Assembly (NCBI GenBank): GCA_964016885.1
Contig: OZ024754.1
Coordinates: forward strand, 8,494,001-8,558,000
DNA length: 64,000 nucleotides
Reading direction: 5' to 3'
Source: Eledone cirrhosa
Taxonomy: Eukaryota
Shown here: in pieces, positions 1 to 47,400 of the stretch
Layout: each line of letters opens with the position of its first letter
Numbering within the stretch: position 1 is the stretch's first letter
The notes under the pieces: generated by a model
What the model was told of the DNA's origin: nothing
Databases searched by the model: none
What the model saw: only the letters and a program-made list of their open reading frames with translations
Position numbers and translations under genes: made by a program

Positions 1-370
1 TACCCAGTGCATTACTGGTACTTTATTTTATCGACCCCGTAAGGATGAAAGGCTAAGTTAATCTCGGCGAGATTTGAACTCAGACCAGAAAGGGGAGTAA
101 CTCTCTCTGCTGCAAAGCATGACATCCGACCCTCTACCGCTACTGACAATCCACCGCCTACCAATCTAATTTAGGCACAAAGCCAACAATTTGAGGGGAG
201 GGTCAAGTCGATTAAATCGAGGACAGTGTATTACTGGTACTGCATATTATCGACCCTGTAAGGATGAAAAGCAAAGTTAACCCAGGCGGAATTTGAACTC
301 AGAACATAAATAGACGTAACTCTATGCCGCAAAGCATGTTGTCCGACGCTCTACCGATGCAGCCCATCCA
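1..370 (-). mobile_element. Two adjacent copies of a tRNA-related SINE family
   Basis: Motif ACTGGTACT..TATCGACCC..AAGGATGAAA..ATTTGAACTCAG occurs at 1-83 and ~230-303; the minus strand has a B-box-like GAGTTCAAAT. The same family recurs at ~15300-15485, 23500-23685, 26670-26755, 29830-29935 and 30430-30570. Confidence 0.7.
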
Positions 371-550
371 TAATAGAAACGCAGTTAGTGACATTCCTCT
401 TTGTGATTGTAAATTGTTAAGCTGATAAGAGAAAACATTCACAGCTTTAATCCAGCTGCCTACTTCTTAACCACTCAAATGTCTTAGACACAAACATAGA
501 GAAGGATTTGCCAGGTTTTAACTGGTGTGGTGGTGGGAGGCGGAGGAGGA

Positions 551-662
551 GAAGAAGAAGAAGAAGAAGAAGAAGAAGAAGAAGAAGAAGAAGAAGAAGA
601 AGAAGAAGAAGAAGAAGAAGAAGAAGAAGAAGAAGAAGAAGAAGAAGAAGAAGAAGAAGAAG

Positions 663-738
<76 letters not shown>
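551..738. repeat. Compound microsatellite (GAA)n(CAA)n
   Basis: Directly visible; it explains the homopolymeric ORFs at 484-911. Confidence 0.97.
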
Positions 739-739
<1 letters not shown>

Positions 740-1137
740 AGAAGAAAAAAGAAGAGGAAAAAGAAGAAAAAAAGAAAGAAAAAGGTTTCCCCTTGGAGAA
801 GAGGATTTCTTTCTTGAAAGTCTGTCTTTAAAATGTCTTCCATATAAATCTATTCTACACTTTCGGCCATGTTTCTATCACTTCCCTCATCCAACATCAT
901 CGCCACCATAACAGTTAACTTTATGACAGCCGAAAGTTGTTACTACTTGAAGAAGTTGAGGTTTTTAGTTTTATATTCCTATATTGGTTAATATATTGGC
1001 AGTGTCAAACTTCAATGCCACATACTCAATTAGCTATAATGGACTCTCACATGGATAGATCTGTTATTTTTATCTAAAGACATTTTTTTCAAATTCCACC
1101 CCGCCCGTCCCTTAAATCTGTCTAATTTCTCATTCTT

Positions 1138-1173
1138 TCTTCTGATGAAGGACTAGCGTCCGAAATGTTAAGA
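1138..1173 (+). ncRNA. Minimal type I hammerhead ribozyme motif (PLE-type), probably decayed
   Basis: TCTT-CTGATGA-A-GGAC-TAGC-GTCC-GAAA-TGTT-AAGA: stem I TCTT/AAGA, stem II GGAC/GTCC, conserved core. GAAATGTT rather than palindromic GAAACGTT suggests CpG decay. Confidence 0.6.
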
Positions 1174-1498
1174 CCTTCTTCCTGCTATTTCAAGTTTTAA
1201 CCTAATATATTCCTTCCATATACTGTACCGATTGTGTTGTTATTTCTGTTTACCTTTTACATATATATATATATATATATTGTTATATTTGGGGAGGGTC
1301 ATATTTGTGTAATATTGCCAGAATTAATAACAGAACACACTCACTGTTTGGTTGGTTTTCGCTTCTCGCTGTCTTTTATATATATATATCTGCGATCTAA
1401 CTTACTCGGTCCTCAATGTTGCCATTGACTGACCGGCGGTCAAAAATAATACAGATACAATATAGACACAAACACATATATATAGTTTACATAATTTA

Positions 1499-1536
1499 CA
1501 TAAATCTTTCGTTGCACATCTGCAACATCGTCAGTG
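1499..1536 (-). ncRNA. Hammerhead ribozyme core in the Penelope 3' UTR
   Basis: Minus strand CTGACGA-T-GTTGCA-GATG-TGCAAC-GAAA-GATTTA: canonical core with a perfect 6-bp stem II, sense to the element. Stem I is weak. Confidence 0.65.
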
Positions 1537-1802
1537 GTGTTATATTCATTGTTCCTCCTGTTGTGTTGTATGTCTACGCCATTTTTTTTGTTCAGTCTGT
1601 CTATATATTTATTTATTTATTTGCTTGTTTGTTTATCTTATTTTATTTTGTCTTCTTTGCGCATGCGTTTGCGTGTGTGTATAGTGTTATGTGTGATGTG
1701 TGACTAGTGTGTATAGTGTTGTGTCTGCTGGGTGACTAGTGTGTGTTTATGTGCTTGTGTATGTATTTGTTTATCTTATTTTTTTAAATTTTATTTACTT
1801 AT

Positions 1803-2538
1803 TTATACTTCTCTTAGGTCAGTGTTGTTTGTTTGGGTGTTGTTGTTGTTCCACTCATTCTTTCTGTTTAGCTTTGGTCTTCTAATTTCTATTTCACTGG
1901 CCTCTCTGATTTGCCTATCTGCTGGGTCATTCCTATGTTTAGATATTATTCTAATTTCTATGTTGTCTATGTTACCGTCATGTTGTTGTCTAGCATGTTC
2001 GTATAGTACTGACCCGTTTTTTCGTCCTTTTAGTTCCCCCCAGTGTTGGTCTATCCTTTCACCTATGCTACGAGCTGTCTCACCTATGTATGTTGTTGTC
2101 ATGTTTCTGCAAGTACCCTCTGTACATCTTATGCTATAGACTACGTTTCTAGTTTTACAGTTTATCCGGGGGTTCACCTTACATATGATACATTTCCTAT
2201 TGGTACAGTGGGTTTTCTTAAAAGGGTAGGTTTTGCTGATCAGGGATTTTATGGTGGTTCCTGGCTTTTCTACCACCTTTATTTTTAAGTGGGTCTTTCT
2301 CAGGGCCTTTCTACACTGGTTAGCTAATTTCCCTCCAGGGGTGGCGTCCACAAACATGACACTCTGATATCTCTGGTTGTCGTACCATGATGTGGCCTTC
2401 CCTATCTTATGTCTAGCCCTATCTAAGCTATTCCATGATTTGCTCCTGTATAGTGGGCAAATTCCTTTCATGTCCAGTTCTATGAGGGTCTTATACTTTT
2501 CCATGGCTCCTTCGTATACTCTGACTCTGTCTCTTTGG
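1803..2538 (-). pseudogene. Penelope-like ORF, linker/Zn-knuckle plus GIY-YIG endonuclease (C-terminal fragment)
   Basis: CTNRKCIIC..CKTRNVVYSIRC..YIGETARSIGERIDQH..LYEH..IREASEI..PKLN; frame is open upstream to QRDRVRVYEGA at the inversion breakpoint. Confidence 0.9.
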
Positions 2539-2542
2539 GTGT

Positions 2543-3122
2543 AGAATCTACACCCAAAATGAGGGAGCAGCCATCGGCGTCAGCATAGCTGGTGATGTTG
2601 CCAACCTTTTCATGGTATGGTGGGAAAGGAGACTTAAAGATCTCCTTAATGAAAGCTCCATAGACCTCATCATGTACTCTCGTTATGTAGACGATATCAA
2701 TATAGTTATAAGAACACCCCCACTAGAGAGCACTAACAAGTTTGATTTGGAACGTAGCACGATGGAAAGCATCCAGCAGATAGCTAATTCCATACACCAG
2801 AGTATAACTGTAACTATAGACTTCCCTTCCAAACACCCTAACAATAGACTACCTGTATTAGACACAGAACTCTGGATTAACACTATAGACGAGAGAGCCC
2901 AAATTCTCCACTCACACTATGCTAAACCCATGGCCTCCAAATACCTGATACTCAAAAACTCAGCAATGTCCAGTAGTGCTAAGTTTAATATTCTGATCGC
3001 AGATTTGGTACGAGTGATGAAGAATGTGTCCAGCATGTGCGACCCAACAGAAATGGAAGGACACATCCAACACTTCATCAACCGCATGCAGTTCTCTGGC
3101 TACAACCAAAGAGACAGAGTCA
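2543..3122 (+). pseudogene. Penelope-like reverse transcriptase fragment (palm and thumb), inverted
   Basis: YTQNEGAAIGVSIAGDVANLFM, YSRYVDDI, LPVLDTELW, MQFSGYNQRDRV; it ends on the same residues at which the minus-strand fragment begins. Confidence 0.9.
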
Positions 3123-3270
3123 CTTTTGGATAGGAGACCTGACCGGGAGGGAGGGAGGTTGAGGAATCTAAAGAATTTAGCGGATAGGTAATCGTGAAGA
3201 TCCTTTACGCTATAACTTTGTAATGAACCTCAACCTCCCTCCCTCCCGGTCAGGTCTCCTATCCAAAAGT
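3122..3270. repeat. Viral terminal hairpin (~149 nt)
   Basis: Perfect 43-bp stem 3122-3164/3228-3270 containing GGGAGGGAGGGAGG; the 63-nt interior pairs imperfectly (AAAG/CTTT, TAGCG/CGCTA, AGG/CCT, ATC/GAT). Confidence 0.8.
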
Positions 3271-3339
3271 TCAGTGCATAGCACAGTTAGGAGAGGGGAC
3301 AGGCAAAGATATCAAATTACAAAGCAAGATTTGACAGTT

Positions 3340-3500
3340 AAGAAATGACGCAATATTAAAGCTACATCAGCAAAAAATAATGCTTGCGTTAGCAAAAGTA
3401 TAAATAGAACCACGTGACAGTAATTCAATATGCTAACGTCAGCAAGAATCGAGATATAAAAACAAAGAGCGCGCAACTCAAACTGCCACAACTCAGCAGA
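3340..3500 (+). promoter_or_regulatory. Putative viral Pol II promoter (mirror copy ~8190-8350 on -)
   Basis: TATAAATA at 3399-3406, TATAAAA at 3455-3461, E-box CACGTG at 3411, CRE-like TGACG/ACGTCA half-sites, all between the hairpin and ATG 3544. Confidence 0.5.
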
Positions 3501-3607
3501 CATCTTGCAGATACGAACGCCGTTACTCCGCAAAAAGATCAACATGAATTACGAAGATTTAAAGACGAGAGATCGAGATATGATTACTTCTTTGGCGGTA
3601 AGTCAGA

Positions 3608-5176
3608 ATGCCTTTACATTTACCAGGTTATAATTATTGTGGTCCATACACAAACAATTTACAAAAACAACCTGTTAACGAATTAGATAAATGCTGTCAA
3701 ATACACGACATAGAATACGGTAAAACAGAGGTAGATATAGCAGAAGCAGATAATAGATTAATACAGTGTTCTGAAAATATAGGCGGAGTAGCGGCGTTCG
3801 TAGTAGCAAACACAATCAAAGCTAAGAATTGGGTTATGCCACCGGCGAACAAAAAAAGAAGAGTAGAAGAAGAACAATCTAAGAAAAATCAAGAAGACCT
3901 TTGCGACGCATCAGACGAAGACTTTGTATCACAAGACAGCGGAATTAATAGTCAAACAGTAGACATGGGTGATCCACATGTAGGTCCAGCTCCTGGGGGC
4001 TCAGCAGCAATGGCAAGTGGAGATCAACCACCAGACATAGGCGATAAAAATCCAATCGTTTCAAAAAAATTTTCAAGAACTTTCATACACTACATAAACT
4101 GTTCGGATAATCCTACAGATAAAGCAATATACAAAACACATGATGATGAATACATAGAATTAACAATAAAACACAGAGCATCATACATACCATATACAGA
4201 ATTAAAAGCTAGTATGACAATAGCAGAATTAGAAACATATTTAACACCTTGCAATAATTTCAGAGTTAAATCATGTGGGTATCAAATATCAAATATAATT
4301 CCTTTAACAGACGAATTAGGAACATTACAAAATACAACTACAACTAACACAACATTCAATACAAGACCATGGATGATACATTACGTCGATAATAAATACT
4401 GTTTATTTCCTAATCAAACATACTTAATAGGACATTTAAACAATAATTGGACACATAACGTACCATTAACAAGGGAAGAAGGGAAACTAAATCAATGCAT
4501 TACAAATAGATTAATTAGAAAAGATTGGTGGTTATGGCAAGATACTAAGGCAGCGAAACCTACAGAACAAGAAATACCAGCAGAAGAAATATTGTCTTAT
4601 TTAAACACTGGTCAATTTCAATTCGTTTACGCTGGGGACACAGCAGGATATACATGGGTAAATAGAACTCCAAGTTGGTTCAATATGATGAACTATTATG
4701 CATTTAATTCTACATACGAACCACCAACAATAAAACTAACTAACGGGTTACCATGCGAAATAAATACTTATTCGGGGGCTAAAAAAAGTGCATGGGCACC
4801 AACGGAAAAAGGGGCATGGAGTAAATCAATGGCGGTAGATAAATCAAATGAAGAACAAAACACTGGCAGATCACATTTAACACAGTTTCCAATAAATCCA
4901 TCTAATCCACCGCCAATAGCTACTTTAGATTCTGTACCTATTCTAGATTCTCAAAACAATCCGGCTAAAATATCATTCATGATCACAATAACTTATCATT
5001 CTGAAATAGATTTCGAATATATTTCTGGCAGTCCACAAACCATGGGTTGGATGGCATGGGGAAAAGACAATGCAACAATACAAAATTCAGCCAAAACAAA
5101 TCTATGTAAATGGCCGCAAGGTTTACGTAATTATGAAATAACGAGAGTCGGTAAAACCCGACAAGCTCATCGTTAA
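3608..5176 (+). CDS. VP1: Parvoviral capsid protein VP1 with N-terminal phospholipase A2, 522 aa (copy 1)
   Basis: LPGYNYCGP Ca-loop-like motif, PVNELDKCCQIHDIEY catalytic HDxxY, ADxxL, NLS-like PPANKKRR, Gly-rich MGDPHVGPAPGGS (possible VP2 start), then a Thr/Asn-rich beta-type body. Confidence 0.9.
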   Translation: MPLHLPGYNYCGPYTNNLQKQPVNELDKCCQIHDIEYGKTEVDIAEADNRLIQCSENIGGVAAFVVANTIKAKNWVMPPANKKRRVEEEQSKKNQEDLCDASDEDFVSQDSGINSQTVDMGDPHVGPAPGGSAAMASGDQPPDIGDKNPIVSKKFSRTFIHYINCSDNPTDKAIYKTHDDEYIELTIKHRASYIPYTELKASMTIAELETYLTPCNNFRVKSCGYQISNIIPLTDELGTLQNTTTTNTTFNTRPWMIHYVDNKYCLFPNQTYLIGHLNNNWTHNVPLTREEGKLNQCITNRLIRKDWWLWQDTKAAKPTEQEIPAEEILSYLNTGQFQFVYAGDTAGYTWVNRTPSWFNMMNYYAFNSTYEPPTIKLTNGLPCEINTYSGAKKSAWAPTEKGAWSKSMAVDKSNEEQNTGRSHLTQFPINPSNPPPIATLDSVPILDSQNNPAKISFMITITYHSEIDFEYISGSPQTMGWMAWGKDNATIQNSAKTNLCKWPQGLRNYEITRVGKTRQAHR

Positions 5177-5183
5177 AGTAATA

Positions 5184-6473
5184 TTACAACAAATCTATCC
5201 ATTTTATATTTGCAGAAAAGAGGAATAAATTTTTATCGAATTTATTATTCGAAGTTATTATTAATGGTGTCCTGTGTACTATTTGGTCTTGACGGAATTT
5301 AACTGATACCTCAGTATCCGTCCCTTCCGCCAATTTCTTAAAAGTTTGTAGAGTTTCAAGAGAGAAGTTAGGTTCTTCTATGAGACCTAGCTCCACATTT
5401 ATTAAATTCTGGAAAGGGAAGCTGCTCGTTCCTTGAATGGTACTGACGTGCGTAAACATGTTAGATATACTACGCGCGATCATTGATTTGCCTGTGTTAG
5501 GCAGGCCGGTGAATACAAGCAAGTTTGTTTTGGCTTTGTATTTATTAAGCAAATCCCAAATACATTTTACAAGTTCTTCTTCGTCTATGTCTTGTGTCAT
5601 AATTATTGATCTAAATATTTTCAACGAAGTTTCGGTATCCATCCATAATTTGGTGTTTTCAAATTGTTTCCAATTCATATTCTCGAACTTTTCTTTGAAT
5701 GGCATTATCAGTGTTTTCAGTTTCACGCATTCGAGTACTTTCTTCATGACGCTGTCGTACATGGGATGACTGATAGCGCGCATGAAATTTTCGTTGTTTG
5801 CTCGGTTAAGCCAGTGTGTTTTCATCTCCTGTTCGTTTCGAAATTTTTTTGATGTGAATATATACGTCAGGTAGTTGAATAGAGTTAAAGTCGTACCACT
5901 TCTGCTTTTGAATGTCGGTTCGTCCGTGGCATGTCTTGTTGATGTACTCGTTTTAGGTGTTGGGCTACATTTAGGTACGTATTCTTTCGAGCACCATTCT
6001 GCAAATTCAGAGTTTATAGAACCGAGGCCTTTTATCAGTAAATATCTCGGTGGTTGGCAGAAGTAATTGGCCATGCTGCTAGGGAACTTTACTCTTTGAC
6101 ACTCTGGTATGTATCGCGCTAACTGTGTTCCCTTTTTGTACAAGCTTCTCACGTATTTGAGACGTTGGTTTTCTCCTGGTCTTATCTCTGAATTCCATAT
6201 GATATGGAAGTGGTTGAACGCATTCCATTCCTTTTTGTCGCATATTTTTGATTCTTTTGGATGGTAAATTACTGTTGCCTTGTTGATTTGAATAAATTCT
6301 ATTATTTTTCTGTTTGCATTAATTAGAAAGTTATTCTTGTATGCCCCTTCTTTTTCGTCGAAATCGTTTGTTGTTATTTCGTCGTGTTGTATCGGAACTC
6401 TACCGTTGTCCCAACTGAAGTCCGTTTCAAGTATCCAAGGATAAATGCACATGTACATTTTTATTCCTCTTTT
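5184..6473 (-). CDS. NS1: Parvoviral NS1/Rep main exon (HUH endonuclease plus SF3 helicase), C-terminus probably truncated at 5230
   Basis: FNHFHIIW (HUH), NYFCQPPR (catalytic Tyr), FTGLPNTGKS (Walker A), LIEEP (Walker B), FKKLAEG..VKF (B'), TPLIITSN (motif C). The last 14 aa are read from the antisense of the left arm. Confidence 0.9.
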   Translation of the reverse strand, partial: KRGIKMYMCIYPWILETDFSWDNGRVPIQHDEITTNDFDEKEGAYKNNFLINANRKIIEFIQINKATVIYHPKESKICDKKEWNAFNHFHIIWNSEIRPGENQRLKYVRSLYKKGTQLARYIPECQRVKFPSSMANYFCQPPRYLLIKGLGSINSEFAEWCSKEYVPKCSPTPKTSTSTRHATDEPTFKSRSGTTLTLFNYLTYIFTSKKFRNEQEMKTHWLNRANNENFMRAISHPMYDSVMKKVLECVKLKTLIMPFKEKFENMNWKQFENTKLWMDTETSLKIFRSIIMTQDIDEEELVKCIWDLLNKYKAKTNLLVFTGLPNTGKSMIARSISNMFTHVSTIQGTSSFPFQNLINVELGLIEEPNFSLETLQTFKKLAEGTDTEVSVKFRQDQIVHRTPLIITSNNKFDKNLFLFSANIKWIDLL

Positions 6474-6512
6474 CTGCAAATATAAAATGGATAGATTTGT
6501 TGTAATATTACT

Positions 6513-8081
6513 TTAACGATGAGCTTGTCGGGTTTTACCGACTCTCGTTATTTCATAATTACGTAAACCTTGCGGCCATTTACATAGATTTGTTTTGGCT
6601 GAATTTTGTATTGTTGCATTGTCTTTTCCCCATGCCATCCAACCCATGGTTTGTGGACTGCCAGAAATATATTCGAAATCTATTTCAGAATGATAAGTTA
6701 TTGTGATCATGAATGATATTTTAGCCGGATTGTTTTGAGAATCTAGAATAGGTACAGAATCTAAAGTAGCTATTGGCGGTGGATTAGATGGATTTATTGG
6801 AAACTGTGTTAAATGTGATCTGCCAGTGTTTTGTTCTTCATTTGATTTATCTACCGCCATTGATTTACTCCATGCCCCTTTTTCCGTTGGTGCCCATGCA
6901 CTTTTTTTAGCCCCCGAATAAGTATTTATTTCGCATGGTAACCCGTTAGTTAGTTTTATTGTTGGTGGTTCGTATGTAGAATTAAATGCATAATAGTTCA
7001 TCATATTGAACCAACTTGGAGTTCTATTTACCCATGTATATCCTGCTGTGTCCCCAGCGTAAACGAATTGAAATTGACCAGTGTTTAAATAAGACAATAT
7101 TTCTTCTGCTGGTATTTCTTGTTCTGTAGGTTTCGCTGCCTTAGTATCTTGCCATAACCACCAATCTTTTCTAATTAATCTATTTGTAATGCATTGATTT
7201 AGTTTCCCTTCTTCCCTTGTTAATGGTACGTTATGTGTCCAATTATTGTTTAAATGTCCTATTAAGTATGTTTGATTAGGAAATAAACAGTATTTATTAT
7301 CGACGTAATGTATCATCCATGGTCTTGTATTGAATGTTGTGTTAGTTGTAGTTGTATTTTGTAATGTTCCTAATTCGTCTGTTAAAGGAATTATATTTGA
7401 TATTTGATACCCACATGATTTAACTCTGAAATTATTGCAAGGTGTTAAATATGTTTCTAATTCTGCTATTGTCATACTAGCTTTTAATTCTGTATATGGT
7501 ATGTATGATGCTCTGTGTTTTATTGTTAATTCTATGTATTCATCATCATGTGTTTTGTATATTGCTTTATCTGTAGGATTATCCGAACAGTTTATGTAGT
7601 GTATGAAAGTTCTTGAAAATTTTTTTGAAACGATTGGATTTTTATCGCCTATGTCTGGTGGTTGATCTCCACTTGCCATTGCTGCTGAGCCCCCAGGAGC
7701 TGGACCTACATGTGGATCACCCATGTCTACTGTTTGACTATTAATTCCGCTGTCTTGTGATACAAAGTCTTCGTCTGATGCGTCGCAAAGGTCTTCTTGA
7801 TTTTTCTTAGATTGTTCTTCTTCTACTCTTCTTTTTTTGTTCGCCGGTGGCATAACCCAATTCTTAGCTTTGATTGTGTTTGCTACTACGAACGCCGCTA
7901 CTCCGCCTATATTTTCAGAACACTGTATTAATCTATTATCTGCTTCTGCTATATCTACCTCTGTTTTACCGTATTCTATGTCGTGTATTTGACAGCATTT
8001 ATCTAATTCGTTAACAGGTTGTTTTTGTAAATTGTTTGTGTATGGACCACAATAATTATAACCTGGTAAATGTAAAGGCAT
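6513..8081 (-). CDS. VP1: Parvoviral capsid protein VP1 with PLA2, 522 aa (copy 2, identical translation)
   Basis: Translation identical to 3608-5176. Confidence 0.9.
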   Translation of the reverse strand: MPLHLPGYNYCGPYTNNLQKQPVNELDKCCQIHDIEYGKTEVDIAEADNRLIQCSENIGGVAAFVVANTIKAKNWVMPPANKKRRVEEEQSKKNQEDLCDASDEDFVSQDSGINSQTVDMGDPHVGPAPGGSAAMASGDQPPDIGDKNPIVSKKFSRTFIHYINCSDNPTDKAIYKTHDDEYIELTIKHRASYIPYTELKASMTIAELETYLTPCNNFRVKSCGYQISNIIPLTDELGTLQNTTTTNTTFNTRPWMIHYVDNKYCLFPNQTYLIGHLNNNWTHNVPLTREEGKLNQCITNRLIRKDWWLWQDTKAAKPTEQEIPAEEILSYLNTGQFQFVYAGDTAGYTWVNRTPSWFNMMNYYAFNSTYEPPTIKLTNGLPCEINTYSGAKKSAWAPTEKGAWSKSMAVDKSNEEQNTGRSHLTQFPINPSNPPPIATLDSVPILDSQNNPAKISFMITITYHSEIDFEYISGSPQTMGWMAWGKDNATIQNSAKTNLCKWPQGLRNYEITRVGKTRQAHR

Positions 8082-8091
8082 TCTGACTTAC

Positions 8092-8145
8092 CGCCAAAGA
8101 AGTAATCATATCTCGATCTCTCGTCTTTAAATCTTCGTAATTCAT
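8092..8145 (-). CDS. Putative NS1 exon 1 (MNYEDLKTRDRDMITSLA); mirror copy 3544-3597 on +
   Basis: ATG plus 17 codons ending at a consensus donor GCG|GTAAGT, phase 0, compatible with the acceptor TTTTATATTTGCAG| at 6474. Confidence 0.65.
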
Positions 8146-8528
8146 GTTGATCTTTTTGCGGAGTAACGGCGTTCGTATCTGCAAGATGTCTGCTGAGTTG
8201 TGGCAGTTTGAGTTGCGCGCTCTTTGTTTTTATATCTCGATTCTTGCTGACGTTAGCATATTGAATTACTGTCACGTGGTTCTATTTATACTTTTGCTAA
8301 CGCAAGCATTATTTTTTGCTGATGTAGCTTTAATATTGCGTCATTTCTTAACTGTCAAATCTTGCTTTGTAATTTGATATCTTTGCCTGTCCCCTCTCCT
8401 AACTGTGCTATGCACTGAACTTTTGGATAGGAGACCTGACCGGGAGGGAGGGAGGTTGAGGTTCATTACAAAGTTATAGCGTAAAGGATCTTCACGATTA
8501 CCTATCCGCTAAATTCTTTAGATTCTTT

Positions 8529-8530
<2 letters not shown>

Positions 8531-8605
<75 letters not shown>
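8531..8605. repeat. (TA)n microsatellite abutting the viral right end
   Basis: Directly visible. Confidence 0.95.
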
Positions 8606-8606
<1 letters not shown>

Positions 8607-8659
8607 GTGTGTGTGTGTGTCTGTGTCTATATACATATGTAAATTTTACATACATGTCA

Positions 8660-8770
8660 GAGGATGTGTGGCTTGGTGGCTTCATTTGAGATTGTCAGTT
8701 CGATTCCGGACAAGGCGGTGCGTTGTGTCCTTGGGCAAGACCCTTTATTGCACATTGCTTCAATTTAGTC
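8660..8770 (+). mobile_element. tRNA-derived SINE 5' fragment
   Basis: A-box-like TGGCTTGGTGG, B-box GTTCGATTCC, then GTTGTGTCCTTGGGCAAGAC, which resembles the reverse complement of the SINE cores at ~21840-22045 and 24310-24550. Confidence 0.55.
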
Positions 8771-9504
8771 AGTTTCATAATATGTTGTTATTTGTAAACA
8801 CCTATGATTTAAAATACGGTTTGAAATGCAAAAAAAAAAAACATTTTTTTTGTTTTTAATAGAATTTAGCATTGCCTTTTATCGATTAAAAGCCGAATTT
8901 ATCGATTGGCACTTTAGACGGCCATCAGAATTTCTCTTTGATGCAAGTTGACATAGCAGGGAACACAGTGGAATTCTTTTACCAATAACAGACGCCAACA
9001 GCCAGACCACGAGAAATTATCATGTCTTTCATTTTATTCAACTTTAATGTATAGGCACGTTTAAGTCAGTGAGGACTTTTCTTTGTGATGATTCAACACA
9101 TGTACATATCTGTGAGTGTGTGTGTGTGTTTACGTATATATGTATATGTGTACGTACGTACATCATACATATATGATGGCTGCAACTCGATTTCGAGTAA
9201 TGCCATTACTTTATACTTAAGCTTGGGATTCACGGATGTGGCTTTTTAGTCCTGCTAGGGACTTGCCTATGACCAGCAATGCTATGCATCACAAATAATG
9301 TCACATATCAAGCAATTCCTGCGCTTGAAGCTTTTTAAGTGAGGAAAAGATTTGCAAGGGGCCAATCCCACTCTCTGAACATCAAATGCATTTGTCCAAA
9401 AAGAACTGGTCTACATCATTGGTTGCAAACGAAGTCGCAGGTTTTATATCAGAGTGACCTTCTCTTAGAGAGATGCCTTAATGCAAACTAGGGGTCTCTC
9501 GAGA

Positions 9505-11245
9505 CATATCTACAGCTAAGTTATGAAATTAACTCCTTAACCACAGAACTACAGTTGTACATAAGTTGTGAAGTAAAAACCTTAACTACACAACCATGTC
9601 TGCACAAATGTTGTGAAGTGAACTAACTCCTCAACAACACAACCATGTCTGTGTATATGTTGTGAAGTGAAAACCTTAACCAATCAACTATATCTTCACA
9701 GCTGTTCTCAAGAAAACGTATTAACACAGCCATGCCTACCTACACCTATGTTTTGAAAAAAACTCTTTAAGCACAGATCAATACCTAGACCTATGTTGTG
9801 AAGTGAACTCCTTAAACACACATCCATATATACACCTATGTTGTGAAGTGAACTGCTCAATCACACATCCATATATACACCAATGTTGTGAAGTGAACTG
9901 CTCAATCACACATCTATATATACACCAATGTTGGGAAGTGAACTCCTTAAACATACAGACATGCCCACACTTATGTTGTGTAATGAATTTCTCAACCACA
10001 CATTCATAACTACACCTGTTGTGAAGTGACCTCTTTAAACACAATGCTATGTCTACACATGTTTTTAACTTCGTTTTTAACTTCTTAACCACACAGCCAT
10101 ATATACACCTATGTTGTGACTAGAACTCCTTAACCACACAGCCATACCTATGTTGTAAAATGAACGCCGTAACTACACAGCCATATCAACACCTAAGTTG
10201 TGAAGAGAACTCTTTATCCACACAACCATACCTACAGCTAAGTTGTGAATTGAACTCCTTATCCACACAGTCATATCTACAGCTATGTTTTGAAGTGAAC
10301 TCCTTAAACACACAACTGTATCTAAACTTTGTTATAAAGAGAAATCTTCAACCACGTAGCTATAACTAAAGCTATGCTTGGAAGTGAAATCATTGATCAC
10401 CAGACATATCTACACATATGTTGTGAAATGAATTCCTTAACCACACAACGATGTCTACACTTACGTTGTGAAGTGGACACCACCTTAACCACACAGCCAT
10501 ATCTGCACCTAAGTTGTGAAAAAAACTCCTTAAACACACAGCCATACCTTCATCTATGAGGTGGAGTGAATTCCTTAACCACACAGCCATATCTACATAT
10601 AAATTGTGATAACGTTTTAAACACATATCGATATCTACACCTATGTTGTGAAGTGAACTCCTTAACCACACAGCCACAACTACACCTGTTGTGAAGTGAA
10701 CTCCTGATAAAAACAATCATAACTACACCTGTTGTGAAGTGAACTCCTGATGAAAACAATCATAACTACACCTGTTGTGAAGTGAACTCCTGATGAAAAC
10801 AGTCATAACTACACCTGTTGTGAAGTGAACTCCTTAACCACACAGCCACAACTACACCTGTTGTGAAGTGAACTCCTTAACCACACAGCCACAACTACAC
10901 CTGTTGTGAAGTGAACTCCTGATAAAAACAATCATAACTACACCTGTTGTGAAGTGAACTCCTGATGAAAACAGTCATAACTACACCTGTTGTGAAGTGA
11001 ACTCCTTAACCACACAGCCATAACTACACCTGTTGTGAAGTGAACTCCTTACCACACAGCCATAACTACACCTGTTGTGAAGTGAACTCCTGATAAAAAC
11101 AGTCATAACTACACCTGTTGTGAAGTGAACTCCTGATAAAAACAGTCATAACTACACCTGTTGTGAAGTGAACTCTTGATAAAAACAGTCATAACTACAC
11201 CTGTTGTGAAGTGAACTCTTGATAAAAACAGTCATAACTACACCT
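9505..11245. repeat. ~43-45-bp minisatellite, degenerate on the left and homogenised at 10670-11245
   Basis: Unit AACTACACCTGTTGTGAAGTGAACTCCT(TAACCACACAGCCAT or GATAAAAACAGTCAT); period 43 (10681 to 10724). Confidence 0.9.
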
Positions 11246-12479
11246 ATGTTGTTGGGGGTTTTTTTGTTTTTTGTTGTTGTTTTTTGTTGCTTGTTTTTAT
11301 TTAACGAAAGCACAAACAAATATAATATAAAGGAAAGGGAAAACAAAAAAGAGAGGAAAAGAAAGAGAAAAGAAAAAAGAAAAAAACAGAAGTGATTAGC
11401 ACACACATCTGAGACCACATACAACAAAGGGCAGGCAAAAGAGGTGGACAACCGAGCCGCTACCAGAATAACCTATGTTGTCAAGTAAACTCCTTAACCA
11501 CACAGCCATAGACTGTGGAAATATTTTACAAATCAAAAAAAAATTTTCACAAAACCTCGTAAACTGTTAATAAAAAGGCTTTACATAAAAACAAGTTATT
11601 TTGTGTCATTTTTGTGTTAATAGAAAGTGTATATGGACTTGCAGGGGAATGAACTCTCTCCCTCTTAATCGGATCTAAAAAATAGTTCAATAATATTTGT
11701 TATAAAATGGGCTTTCGAAAGAGTCCCAGTAAAAAAAAAAATAGGGAAAAAAAATCAGAGAAAGGAAGTGAGCTCTTTAAAATACTTTCAGAGTTGTCCG
11801 TCTTAAACTGATAAAAAGAAGTTTAATACATTAAATAGATAAAATAAAGGATTGTTTCTCGAAAGAGAAAAGGAATAGACATGCAAGAGAGTGTACTCTA
11901 TAAAATATTTTCTGAGTTGTCTCCCTTGACCGGAACTTAAAATATTACGAAAATAAAAGCATGAATCAAGTATTTTTTAAAAAATGAAATTTATTGATTA
12001 GTTTCAATATATACGAAAAAGAATATATGAAATAGAAAACATTAAATAAAAGATAGATTTTCAAGAATGGGCAAGAAACAATATGGGAGGAAACTTTTTG
12101 AATATTTTCAGAGTTGTGTCCCTTAACCGGAAGTTTAAAACTGTAAGAAATAGCGTTGAAATATACGAAGATATATATATATATATATATATGAGAAAAT
12201 TTGTCCATAAAATGTTTCCTAAAGTAATCTTTTTATAAATTTATCTTGATTGTGTCCTTAAGGAATACATTTCACAACATATCTGTAGATTTATCTATGT
12301 GATTAAGCAGTTCACTTCACTGCATAACTGTAAGTTTGACTGTTGTTAAAGTATTTACTTCACATTATAATAACGAAAATTATTGTGTACAGTGCTCAGG
12401 TGCACTACAACTAAAGTAAATTGAAAACTTAATTAACTGACATTTTCCAAACAATTCAAATGGGAGCCGACGTCTGTTG

Positions 12480-13059: not shown

Positions 13060-15275
13060 AGAATAACAAGTAGGAACCCTATCTGAAACAGGCACTGCTT
13101 GAAATTAAAATTGCACTCAAACTTTCACATGAGAAGGGGAGGGCGGAGAGAGAAGCCAGGGCCATAGAAAATATTAAAACAAACACAAAGGCCTTCTTTA
13201 AATTTGCAAAAGAGACTGCCTCGGTACACTGCAAGATTGGGCCACTTTTTCATAAAAATGGCTCATTGACCGAGGATCCTCAAGGGATAAGTGAAATACT
13301 GAAAGAACAGTACAAAAATGTGTTCATACCTCCACTGAGATACATGCAAATAACAAAGCCAGAGGAATTCTTTGATGACACAGCACTCCACGAAGAAATG
13401 GCAACCATCAACCACATAGATATAATGGAAGCCATAGAAGAAATGAGAGCAAACTCAGCTGCTGGACCTGATGGATTCCCAGCAGTCCTCCTAAAAACAT
13501 ACCTTAACAAGATCACTGAAGATTCTATTCAGATGTTCTCTGCTTGTGGTAAACCACCCAGAGAGCAAAAAGAAGGCATAATATGCCATATCCACAAAGG
13601 AGGAAGCAGAGCAAAGGCTAAAATGCCAGTCTCCCTGACGTCACATATCAGTAAGGTCATGGAATGAATTATTAGAAGGAAACTGATTATGTTCCTTGAG
13701 GAAAATGACCGCCTAACACTCAGCATGGCTTTCACCTAGGAAGAGGCTGCCTTACACAGCTTTTACAACATTACGACTGGGTACTGAAACAACTGCTGGA
13801 CAGCTCACATGTGGATGTAATATATGTTGACTTTGTGAAGGCCTTTGACAAGGTCGACCATGGAATGATATATCACAAACTACACAGACTCGGCATAACT
13901 GGAAAAGTAGGTGAGTGGCTACATGACTTCTTAAAAGACAAAAACCAGACTGTTGCAGCCAATGGGTCCCACTCAAAGGAAACATCAATAACTAGCGAGG
14001 TGCCCCAGGGCACAGTCTTAGGATCACAACTGTTTTTGGTGGCTCTTCCAGACATGCCCTCTGTAGTACATACAACATCCCTCACTAGCTATACTGATGA
14101 CACAAAGGTAGCACAGGCAATCAAGAACCTGGCTGATGCTACTATTTTACAAGATCTGGATGCCATATACAAATGGGCTGAGGACAACAACATGCAGTTC
14201 AATGCTGGAAAATTTCAAGCCCTACGATATCAACCTGCTAACACAATGACAGTACAGCACAGCTACACAGGACCAGGAGGAATTAAAATCCCTGTGTCGA
14301 AATCAATATGAGACCTGGGTATAGACATGACTGATGATGCAACGTTTCATTCACACATCATGAAAATGGCGACAATGTGCAGACAACTCGCCAGCTGGAT
14401 CTTGAGGACTTTCAAGACAAGAGACCGAGAAACCATGTTGGTACTATGGAGGACATTTGTCCTAAGCCGACCGGACTATTGTTCCCAACTATGGTGACCC
14501 TCATAGTGTCAAACTAACCACAGAGTTTGAAACAATCCAACAAAGTTACACCAAGAGGATTGCAACAATAAAGGAGATGAACTACTGGGAGAGGTTAAAA
14601 GAACTGAAACTCTAATCTTTGGAACGAAGGCAGGAGAGAAACGCTGTGATATACATATGGAAGATCCTGGAGGGAATAGCACAAAACTTTGGCATTGAGA
14701 GCTGGACCAACATCCGAACAGGACGTCACTGTGTGGTGCCAAAGGTCCCGTCTTTCACATCTAGAGTAAGGAGCAGATATTGCAATAACCTGGGGTTCAA
14801 GAAGGGGCCCTAGCTTTTTAATAAACTGCCAAAACATTTTAGAGATCTACATGGTGTGCATGTAGATATCTTCAAGAGACACCCAAACAGGACGTCACTG
14901 TGTGGTGCCAAAGGTCCCGTCTTTCATATCTAGAGTAAGGAGCAGATATTGCAATAGCATGGAGTTCAAGGGACCCTAGCTTTTTAATAAACTGCCAAAA
15001 AATTTGAGAGATCTACATGGTGTACATGTAGATATCTTCAAGAGACACCCAAACAGGACGTCACTGCGTGGTGCCAAAGGTCCCGTCTTTCATATCTAGA
15101 GTAAGGAGCAGATATTGCAATAGCATGGGGTTCAAGGGACCCTAGCTTTTTAATAAACTGCCAAAACATTTGAGAGATCTACATGGTGTGCATGTAGATA
15201 TCTTCAAGAGACATCTCAACATTCTACAGAGCAAGATCCCAGATGAACTTACATCACGAGGTTTGAGCAGCAGCA
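13060..15275 (+). mobile_element. Decayed CR1-like LINE, ORF2 reverse transcriptase region
   Basis: SAAGPDGF, PVSLTSHISKVME, DVIYVDFVKAFDKVDH, VPQGTVLG, YTDDTK, WAEDNNMQFNAGKF; several frameshifts and stops. Confidence 0.88.
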
Positions 15276-22771: not shown

Positions 22772-23275
22772 TTAACCCTTTAGCATTCACATTACTCTAT
22801 ATATACTATTATATTTTCATGGTAAAGGCTTTACCTCACATAATATCTCACATAACATTTACATTACTCTATATATACTATTGTATTTTCATGGTAAAGG
22901 CTTTACCTCACATAATATCTCACATAACATTCACATTACTCTATATATACTATTGTATTTTCATGGTAAAGGCTTTACCTCACATAATATCTCATGTAAC
23001 ATTCACATTACTCTATATATACTATTGTATTTACATGGTAAATGCTTTACCTTGCATAAATATCTCACATAACATTCACATTACTCTATATATACTATTG
23101 TATTTTCATTGTAAAGGCTTTACCTCACATAATATCGAATCTATGAGATTTTGAAAGTATTTATTTTGAGAACAATACCTTAACATCAGTTTGAGTGACC
23201 AGTTACAGCCAGTTTCAACAGAAAAAGGTAGAGAATTCTGGCCGGTTTTGGCCGGTTTGAACATTAAAGGGTTAA
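22772..23275. mobile_element. piggyBac-type MITE with internal ~72-bp tandem repeats
   Basis: TTAA-CCCTTTAGCATT...TTAAAGGG-TTAA; same family as 30048-30277. Confidence 0.75.
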
Positions 23276-44400: not shown

Positions 44401-47400
44401 CCTAGCTAGACTTGTTACCAACGTTGACATCACAACTAATTAAACCAACCTTACTTCCATCTCCCTACATTCCTAGCTAGACTTGTTACCAAGGATGTCA
44501 TCACAACTAATTAAACCAACCTTACCTCCATCTCCCTACATTCCTAGCTAGACTTGTTACCAACGATGTCATCACAACTAATTAAACCAACCTTACTTCC
44601 ATCTCCCTACATTCCTAGCTAGACTTGTTACCAAGGATGTCATCACAACTAATTAAACCAACCTTACCTCCATCTCCCTACATTCCTAGCTAGACTTGTT
44701 ACCAAGGATGTCATCACAACTAATTAAACCAACCTTACCTCCATCTCCCTACATTCCTAGCTAGACTTGTTACCAAGGATGTCATCACAACTAATTAAAC
44801 CAACCTTACCTCCATCTCCCTACATTCCTAGCTAGACTTGTTACCAACGATGTCATCACAACTAATTAAACCAACCTTACTTCCATCTCCCTACATTCCT
44901 AGCTAGACATGTTACCAAGGATGTCATCACAACTAATTAAACCAACCTTACCTCCATCTCCCTACATTCCTAGCTAGACTTGTTACCAACGTTGACATCA
45001 CAACTAATTAAACCAACCTTACTTCCATCTCCCTACATTCCTAGCTAGACTTGTTACCAAGGATGTCATCACAACTAATTAAACCAACCTTACCTCCATC
45101 TCCCTACATTCCTAGCTAGACTTGTTACCAACGTTGACATCACAACTAATTAAACCAACCTTACCTCCATCTCCCTACATTCCTAGCTAGACTTGTTACC
45201 AAGGATGTCATCACAACTAAACCAACCTTACTTCCATCTCCCTACATTCCTAGCTAGACTTGTTACCAAGGATGTCATCACAACTAAACCAACCTTACTT
45301 CCATCTCCCTACATTCCTAGCTAGACTTGTTACCAAGGATGTCATCACAACTAATTAAACCAACCTTACCTCCATCTCCCTACATTCCTAGCTAGACTTG
45401 TTACCAACGTTGACATCACAACTAATTAAACCAACCTTACCTCCATCTCCCTACATTCCTAGCTAGACTTGTTACCAAGGATGTCATCACAACTAATTAA
45501 ACCAACCTTACTTCCATCTCCCTACATTCCTAGCTAGACTTGTTACCAAGGATGTCATCACAACTAAACCAACCTTACCTCCATCTCCCTACATTCCTAG
45601 CTAGACTTGTTACCAAGGATGTCATCACAACTAAACCAACCTTACCTCCATCTCCCTACATTCCTAGCTAGACTTGTTACCAAGGATGTCATCACAACTA
45701 ATTAAACCAACCTTACTTCCATCTCCCTACATTCCTAGCTAGACTTGTTACCAAGGATGTCATCACAACTAAACCAACCTTACCTCCATCTCCCTACATT
45801 CCTAGCTAGACTTGTTACCAAGGATGTCATCACAACTAAACCAACCTTACCTCCATCTCCCTACATTCCTAGCTAGACTTGTTACCAAGGATGTCATCAC
45901 AACTAAACCAACCTTACCTCCATCTCCCTACATTCCTAGCTAGACTTGTTACCAACGTTGACATCACAACTAATTAAACCAACCTTACCTCCATCTCCCT
46001 ACATTCCTAGCTAGACTTGTTACCAAGGATTTCATCACAACTAATTAAACCAACCTTACTTCCATCTCCCTACATTCCTAGCTAGACTTGTTACCAAGGA
46101 TTTCATCACAACTAATTAAACCAACCTTACCTCCATCTCCCTACATTCCTAGCTAGACTTGTTACCAAGGATGTCATCACAACTAATTAAACCAACCTTA
46201 CTTCCATCTCCCTACATTCCTAGCTAGACTTGTTACCAAGGATGTCATCACAACTAATTAAACCAACCTTACTTCCATCTCCCTACATTCCTAGCTAGAC
46301 TTGTTACCAACGTTGACATCACAACTAATTAAACCAACCTTACCTCCATCTCCCTACATTCCTAGCTAGACTTGTTACCAAGGATGTCATCACAACTAAT
46401 TAAACCAGCCTTACTTCCATCTCCCTACATTCCTAGCTAGACTTGTTACCAAGGATGTCATCACAACTAATTAAACCAACCTTACCTCCATCTCCCTACA
46501 TTCCTAGCTAGACTTGTTACCAAGGATGTCATCACAACTAATTAAACCAACCTTACTTCCATCTCCCTACATTCCTAGCTAGACTTGTTACCAACGTTGA
46601 CATCACAACTAATTAAACCAACCTTACTTCCATCTCCCTACATTCCTAGCTAGACTTGTTACCAACGTTGACATCACAACTAATTAAACCAACCTTACCT
46701 CCATCTCCCTACATTCCTAGCTAGACTTGTTACCAAGGATTTCATCACAACTAATTAAACCAACCTTACTTCCATCTCCCTACATTCCTAGCTAGACTTG
46801 TTACCAACGTTGACATCACAACTAATTAAACCAACCTTACCTCCATCTCCCTACATTCCTAGCTAGACTTGTTACCAAGGATTTCATCACAACTAATTAA
46901 ACCAACCTTACTTCCATCNNNNNNNNNNNNNNNNNNNNNNNNNNNNNNNNNNNNNNNNNNNNNNNNNNNNNNNNNNNNNNNNNNNNNNNNNNNNNNNNNN
47001 NNNNNNNNNNNNNNNNNNNNNNNNNNNNNNNNNNNNNNNNNNNNNNNNNNNNNNNNNNNNNNNNNNNNNNNNNNNNNNNNNNNNNNNNNNNNNNNNNNNN
47101 NNNNNNNNNNNNNNNNNNGTTGACATCACAACTATTAAACCAACCTTACCTCCATCTCCCTACATTCCTAGCTAGACTTGTTACCAACGTTGACATCACA
47201 ACTAATTCAAACCAACCTTACCTCCATCTCCCTACATTCCTAGCTAGACTTGTTACCAGGAAGTTGACATCACAACTAATTAAACCAACCTTACCTCCAT
47301 CTCCCTACATTCCTAGCTAGACTTGTTACCAACGTTGACATCACAACTAATTAAACCAACCTTACTTCCATCTCCCTACATTCCTAGCTAGACTTGTTAC

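Follow-up and report, generated by a model that had tools for sequence, protein, structure and literature searches.

Organization of the fold-back element

The 64,000-nt window of Eledone cirrhosa DNA analyzed here contains a parvovirus-like element built from two arms of 2,066 nt each, with 1,230 nt between them (Table 1). The arms, located with a repeat finder and compared directly, are reverse complements of one another with 0 mismatches; when these 5.4 kb were shuffled 20 times, the longest exact inverted repeat was 12–16 nt. Three features of an asymmetric snap-back are present: (i) both ends derive from one viral terminus, a 149-nt hairpin that is complete at the left end and has been opened at the right one; (ii) the arms are self-complementary and (iii) a loop lies between them. 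The same 522-residue VP frame is open in each arm. An initial sequence-only reading had proposed the mirrored arms, the intact VP copies, the common terminus and a snap-back origin, all of which held on alignment, and the lack of mismatches agrees with its suggestion of a very recent event. That reading covered neither the capsid-first gene order nor the sister loci nor the retroelement at the left junction. The element is an asymmetric snap-back and not a virus with giant terminal repeats, and there is a high likelihood that the observed structure is real.

Table 1. Features of the element and its left and right flanks (window coordinates)
Feature	Position	Strand	Remark
Older short repeat, about 210 nt	1049–1258		Marks pre-insertion site
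(AT)10	1261–1280		Left part of target array
3′ part of young retroelement, presumably Penelope-like	1277–2544	−	RT end, endonuclease-like ORF 1803–2504, terminal repeat
Inverted 5′ segment of same retroelement copy	2545–3122	+	
Whole VP-side terminal hairpin	3122–3270		149 nt; 43-bp stem, GGGA-type repeats, 63-nt imperfect bubble
Left arm (copied-back arm)	3164–5229	+	Repeat finder and direct comparison
Two TATA-like boxes, putative promoter	3399–3461 (at 3399, 3455)	+	Motif
Six-codon leader and splice donor	3580–3603; donor 3597/3598, mirror 8092/8091	+	Conserved signals
Predicted intron, 1,618 nt	3598–5215; mirror 8091–6474	+	Contains entire VP gene
VP, 522 aa, open	3608–5176	+	Left arm
NS1, shortened	5184–6458	−	Parvo_NS1 frame; 410 native residues plus 14 from arm
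Pyrimidine tract and AG acceptor	5200–5229; AG 5214–5215, mirror 6475–6474	+	Conserved; arm end
AATAAA	5224	+	Near left-arm end
New fold-back junction	5229/5230		1-base overlap; present at this locus only
AATAAA	5241–5246	−	Just ahead of new junction
Native VP-to-NS1 boundary of parent	6459/6460		Same join in other loci
Right arm (native VP side of parent)	6460–8525	−	Repeat finder and direct comparison
VP, identical second copy, open	6513–8081	−	Right arm; VP frames point inward
Mirror TATA-like boxes	8228–8290	−	Facing left-arm copy
Right host junction	8516–8604		Opened hairpin, 8-nt tandem duplication, then (AT)37

Both encoded proteins have parvoviral counterparts. VP residues 2–40 match the parvoviral PLA2 domain (PF08398, E 2.4e-13), the VP core matches the capsid of Penaeus monodon metallodensovirus (PmMDV; 6WH3, E 3.3e-9) and the protein falls with parvoviral capsid clusters by sequence and feature matches; its single-sequence structure model reached a pLDDT of 29.7. 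The spacer had been read as NS1. A Parvo_NS1 frame is indeed found there, but the gene is incomplete and the arm supplies its final 14 codons. The frame includes an SF3 helicase (PF01057, E 3.9e-16) with matches to AAV Rep and NS1 structures, and its motifs lie at positions 83 (HFH), 318 (Walker A), 360 (Walker B) and 398 (motif C). HFH, which we take to be an HUH-like endonuclease motif, is conserved across the alignment, and Pfam returned no match for that domain. Compared with the 549-residue frame found elsewhere, NS1 is cut after residue 410, and the roughly 139 missing C-terminal residues include an invariant arginine located past motif C. The named close matches are Octopus genome proteins. 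In an Rfam scan of positions 1–12,000, all matches were to microRNA-type hairpins below threshold, and no hammerhead was found.

The TATA-like boxes are mirrored and face one another, as the convergent promoters of the sequence-only reading would require, if they do act as promoters. With the promoter at the VP end, folding back sets two copies face to face, and this arrangement makes the element a plausible source of double-stranded RNA, as had been suggested.

Sister loci and the layout of the parent virus

A search of the octopus's own genome returned 87 matches, of which four loci are 98–100% identical and many older copies are ~65–83% identical. The four young loci are C14 (the element studied here), C5, C10 and C998; the other three were fetched together with 12 older loci taken from the top of the 87-match list. 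In 16/16 loci (these 15 and the right half of the element) VP precedes NS1 and shares its strand, with 0 convergent arrangements. The join at 6459/6460 recurs in 3/3 other young loci, in 12/12 older loci and in a 3,525-nt DNA contig from a second species; this tandem order in all 15 other loci and the second-species contig identifies 6459/6460 as the native boundary. At the equivalent of 5229/5230, by contrast, the other young and older loci continue in NS1. An ambisense densovirus was considered and rejected, since the parental genes are on one strand and the convergent left half arises solely through the new junction.

The parent thus consists of a hairpin, VP, NS1 on the same strand and a different hairpin, for a total of ~4.0 kb from the coordinates. 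The VP-side hairpin (fold −63.4 kcal/mol) occurs in flip and flop forms among the sister loci, and at the right end of the element the same hairpin has been opened at the bubble so that only its inner stem and bubble remain. The NS-side hairpin, whole at one young locus only (C998, beyond NS1), is unlike it, an 18-nt GGGA-type motif being all that the two share. Two hairpins, flip and flop, and palindromes of both types correspond to the linear 4–6 kb genome with hairpin termini characteristic of Parvoviridae. The shared terminal motif (≤3 mismatches) is present in only 4/12 older loci, and so both termini are not demonstrable for the older copies. The 5.4 kb of the element had been taken as a normal parvovirus genome size. 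It is instead ~135% of the parent, and a form of this size looks more like a fragment of a replicative intermediate than like a packaged genome, which would argue against packaging as a defective particle.

Outside the hairpin the young loci differ by 0–4 substitutions per 1–2 kb, while their flanks are unrelated. Inversions are found in 4/4 of them with different breakpoints: on C10 a head-to-head palindrome accompanies a second snap-back, whose arms are 1,564 nt long, C998 has a tail-to-tail palindrome and C5 a head-to-head remnant plus an inverted fragment. Rolling-hairpin replication is expected to pass through palindromic intermediates of this kind.

The older loci also bear on how NS1 may be expressed. 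Inspected by eye, an ATG stands 18 nt (six codons) ahead of the donor in 9/9 older loci with the VP start shown, and a pyrimidine tract with a CAG acceptor lies 15 nt (five codons) before the NS1 start position, in frame, in 10/10 older loci shown. The GT donor is intact in 8/9 older loci; L025 contains an additional VP fragment, whose donor has decayed. The initial methionine of NS1 has been replaced in several older copies, consistent with use of the leader. These conserved signals, together with a contig break described below, suggest that NS1 is produced by splicing out the whole VP gene.

By its NS1, termini and PLA2 domain the lineage is parvovirus-like, with a gene order unlike any layout in the literature consulted. 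Parvoviruses have NS on the left and VP on the right, encoded on one strand or on opposite strands, in the portions of PMC11357303 and PMC12298888 available; that layout is absent from 16/16 loci, although it is descriptive and not an NS1-based family criterion. Open-access main texts searched contained no description of a capsid-first order, a cephalopod parvovirus or an endogenous snap-back, and the main-text portions of PMC5013282, PMC13426907, PMC11125579, PMC10267136 and PMC12297876 do not describe this lineage. Free relatives were not found among the viral contigs or metagenome contigs scanned. The capsid-first order is likely, rather than proven, to be new.

Host junctions and evidence from sequencing runs

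The older short repeat at the left has 92–94% matches at at least 40 other places among the matches listed, and an AT-rich array follows it in 3/3 copies fetched. Here, (AT)10 on the left and (AT)37 on the right show that a composite of virus and retroelement splits one such array. We take the retroelement, from its motifs, to be Penelope-like and its ORF to encode a GIY-YIG endonuclease. Its copies are 98–100% identical (3,501 first-look candidates); a sister copy has one 548-residue frame with a weak RVT_1 match (E 0.0013, under the curated cut-off), and the Pfam profiles gave no endonuclease family match in the retroelement. In sister copies the 5′ segment continues uninterrupted into the 3′ part. 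An inverted 5′ segment joined where a second primer would act is also a property of the twin-primed insertions outlined in the accessible part of PMC2837659; in contrast to these, no target duplication was found here and the second-primer position is occupied by the viral hairpin end. A single capture event and two successive insertions are about equally probable. As a general route, capture by a retroelement was rejected, because none of the other three young loci has a copy next to it.

At the left host junction, the first base of the viral hairpin forms a 1-base overlap with the end of the retroelement segment, and C998 has a 16-nt duplication at its host junction. The assembly yielded neither an empty allele nor a second haplotype for the insertion site.

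Four of the 23 listed sequencing runs were compared with positions 2800–6500. No run recorded as RNA is listed for this stretch, which speaks neither for nor against its transcription. Run X4 derives from a second sample and is of unrecorded type. Its contig 16 is unbroken over 5200–6474 with 1 other letter and a depth of 51, and it crosses 5229/5230 with 30 letters on the arm side, one below the 31-letter bridging rule. This contig terminates on the G of the predicted acceptor AG. The arm contig of X4 stops at 5229 with a depth of 23.5. A depth step near 3493 would fit the putative promoter; the depth of 5.5 at 3594 is low and unpredicted by a simple leader exon ending at 3597. Among the X4 joints displayed, the splice joint itself is absent, and most T>C places are likewise outside the displayed material. 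The sequence-only reading had envisaged NS1 antisense RNA; the contigs, which carry no strand, are better matched by spliced NS1-sense RNA that starts in the right arm and continues into capsid antisense.

The differences in X4 are strongly skewed. Among 90 changed places, T>C accounts for 64 and A>G for 1, compared with 10 T>C and 4 A>G among 51 in X1 (64/90 versus 10/51 for T>C, Fisher p 3e-9). RNA editing is abundant in coleoids, and the excess is as expected from A-to-I edited fold-back RNA: a T>C change read on this strand corresponds to A>G on the capsid antisense, which would match edited antisense if the capsid-sense strand is spliced out. Older copies are present in X4 too, two loose ends matching locus L030 by eye, and T>C is the commonest difference class of the older copies in conserved windows (32/185 places). 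Contig 14 of X4 has 14 differences in 193 nt; the least-different full-length older copy has 37. None of the 12 older loci matches this contig.

In X1, the main NS1 contig is a native read-through with 551 further letters, and the new junction is in no listed piece. Contig 5 of this run begins at 3164, the position that mirrors the right end, and has 26 other letters, so that the right host junction is indirectly supported. Depth over the virus is 14–18 on the main contigs of X1; the values of 18 for the arm and 13.8 for the spacer are sums over all loci. Neither the left host junction nor the full length of the element is spanned by a listed piece from any of the runs. The RAD-type run X21 has a depth of 0–2 over the element, within which the enzyme we infer for that run has no cut site. 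The runs that contain at least half of the words all belong to 1 of 9 studies, and a related copy is present in many runs of the second species. X1 and X4 come from a single study and perhaps from the source animal; they therefore argue against an artefact but do not argue for inheritance.

Origin, alternatives and relation to known systems

We consider it probable that the element is an integrated asymmetric snap-back of a capsid-first parvovirus that entered very recently, expresses NS1 by splicing, was end-joined into (AT)n and gives rise to edited hairpin RNA. During rolling-hairpin replication, a strand extending through VP and most of NS1 would have jumped 1,230 nt back onto the opposite strand, with copying then continuing out to the VP-side hairpin. 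The product would then have been joined into (AT)n by end-joining repair, at or beside a break exploited by an active Penelope-like element, with a timing that is conjectural. RNA from the right arm would comprise VP, truncated NS1 and VP antisense, and could form a hairpin of up to ~1.7 kb that would be edited A-to-I. The spliced truncated-NS1 RNA may end partly at the AATAAA on the minus strand and partly continue into capsid antisense. As splicing would remove the VP-sense strand, edits would persist mainly on the antisense strand. The element is most likely an integration by-product, and a silencing effect on the virus is possible. A bolder synthesis would have a new capsid-first lineage now invading the octopus germ line, the hairpin end serving as the second primer of the Penelope-like element, and the ADAR-edited anti-capsid hairpin together with the truncated NS1 constituting an inherited defence at its birth; we regard this combination as doubtful.

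It is unlikely that this snap-back, although genuine viral DNA, is not inherited, as would be the case for a somatic or clonal insertion or for episomal replicative DNA of an active infection that the assembler had joined to host sequence. The near-identity of the young loci outside the hairpin would fit such an origin, as would the confinement of the word-rich runs to a single study, the left host junction missing from the listed contigs and the lack of an empty allele in the assembly. However, the host junctions resemble repair products, with the 1-base overlap, the 8-nt duplication and the 16-nt duplication at C998; the depth over the virus in X1 is modest, and the 87 matches and the related copy in the second species attest to many past germ-line entries.

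An assembly artefact produced by fold-back chimeric long reads is very unlikely. Perfect arms, palindromes at all four loci and a junction not visible in the listed X1 contigs are what such reads could leave. Fold-back chimeras are, however, expected to mirror the flank and to turn at a single point; this element has flanks that differ, a loop of 1,230 nt and two hairpin ends that are unlike one another. In addition, the junction is contained in the main X4 contig, and contig 5 of X1 begins at the position mirroring the right end.

There is only a slim chance that the element has been selected as a host-useful antiviral, acting through capsid small RNAs and through a truncated NS1 that would bind the viral origin but is devoid of its helicase end. 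The signs of transcription and editing would suit such a function, as would an NS1 that retains the HFH and Walker motifs with its C-terminal part gone. Heavy editing could nevertheless unwind the duplex instead of feeding silencing, and arms with 0 mismatches are too young to show selection. Parvo-like endogenous copies give piRNA-like RNAs in other marine invertebrates, but the mollusc sampled had no canonical Dicer-type viral small RNAs (both from the accessible part of PMC6085071), so silencing cannot be assumed.

Finally, the second option of the sequence-only reading, a complete virus whose giant terminal repeats contain the capsid gene, would account for both open VP copies and for the hairpin type common to the two ends but can be dismissed, because the parent reads on to a different hairpin at its NS1 end, as seen in the sister loci, NS1 is severed at the new junction and the layout occurs in 0/15 other loci.

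A close parallel to the integrated snap-back is found in AAV, where asymmetric snap-backs with a loop occur, double-stranded RNA has been proposed to arise from promoter-bearing ones and integration has been hypothesized (PMC8235507, in part). The 5′-SBG of AAV treated in the same portion of that source shares with our element a self-complementary copy of one end, a single-stranded loop and promoters that face one another when double-stranded; our element differs in being chromosomal, in an invertebrate, larger than its parent, with a duplex that covers the capsid gene rather than rep and with an editing-like signature. By analogy, it may work like a promoter-bearing AAV snap-back. If the RNA evidence holds, the response of a coleoid to a long perfect viral duplex (editing, small RNAs or silencing) becomes testable, as does repression of a virus by its integrated snap-back, for AAV hypothesized only.

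Single-promoter heterotelomeric parvoviruses, bocaparvoviruses among them, resemble the parent: their two hairpins differ, a single upstream promoter is combined with alternative splicing, and they have a PLA2 domain at the capsid N-terminus and an SF3 NS1 (available portion of PMC12298888). The order is reversed here, with VP beside the promoter and NS1 presumably reached by splicing. A capsid-first order and a conserved spliced NS1 leader in copies that are 65–80% identical and span two species would represent an expression plan new to the family, in hosts for which the literature searched describes no parvovirus. The four near-identical loci with different fold-backs may capture endogenization from replicative intermediates at its start.

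Parvo-like endogenous copies of marine invertebrates, molluscs included, are likewise transcribed and give antisense RNA; neither a long perfect self-complementary copy nor a capsid-first order is described in the accessible portions of PMC6085071 and PMC5013282, and the word ‘octopus’ is absent from the main text of the latter as available. PmMDV, which provides the best solved-structure match to the capsid core (6WH3), also has an aquatic invertebrate host and a genome of ~4 kb; unlike the present lineage, it has identical ITRs and lacks PLA2 according to the part of PMC11357303 at hand.

Young loci and a private base

The other young parvoviral loci of this genome (Table) are each rearranged in their own way. 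The locus on contig C10 holds a snap-back that has perfect arms of 1,564 nt and a loop of ~1.1 kb; after it come a head-to-head palindrome, in which the hairpin is shortened, and an additional copy with a frameshifted VP and a cut NS1. On C998, the NS-side hairpin lies at the centre of a 1,425-nt palindrome, and the locus is flanked on either side by AT-rich arrays. The C5 copy has an NS1 with an internal deletion and ends in an inverted capsid fragment of 76 nt. Window position 5691 carries a base found only at the studied locus when compared with the three other young loci covering that position; this base could serve as a tag for RNA from the studied locus, or it could be a consensus error.

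Table. Locations of minisatellites in the window and of other endogenous parvoviral loci in the same genome (assembly G000; C, contig; L, locus)
Feature	Location	Description
Minisatellite	window 9737-11252	43-nt unit
Minisatellite	window 14710-15213	166-nt unit
Minisatellite	window 22784-23136	72-nt unit
L022 + L023, second young locus	G000:C10:49485764-49493348	snap-back, then palindrome, then further copy
L024, young locus	G000:C998:34579-39250	palindrome at NS-side hairpin
L021, young locus	C5:102829677-102833228	rearranged copy
L026 + L031, cluster	G000:C12:9.07-9.09 Mb	endogenous parvoviral copies
L034, older copy	C2:163.46 Mb	related hairpins at either end
L030, older copy	C2:345.37 Mb	matched by two X4 loose ends

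Older copies and signals in sequencing runs

Besides its parvoviral copies, the C12 cluster contains two unassigned ORFs (235 and 284 aa) and a pair of NS1-like frames that are more distant; additional clusters lie on C25, C27 and C2. The paired hairpins of L034 may reflect like ends in some lineages, or else another rearrangement; extra hairpin copies surround an RT-like ORF in this locus. In run X4, the fit of two loose ends to L030, judged by eye, suggests that older copies may be transcribed too. The second-species copy in run X9 (contig 22) has an identity of ~94% in VP versus ~82% in NS1, a disparity that hints that VP and NS1 may have recombined.

Repeats and retroelements around the element

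A satellite with a 71-nt unit (445 copies, 95% matches) occupies window positions 32418-64000, with C in strong excess over G and a 200-N gap at 46919-47118. An older short repeat (1049-1258) contains a motif at 1141-1165 that we take to be a hammerhead-like core, for which Rfam gave no match. A perfect 12-bp hairpin (2533-2557) marks the internal inversion joint of the flanking retroelement, and fragments of another retroelement, presumably RT-like, lie at 13344-14311.
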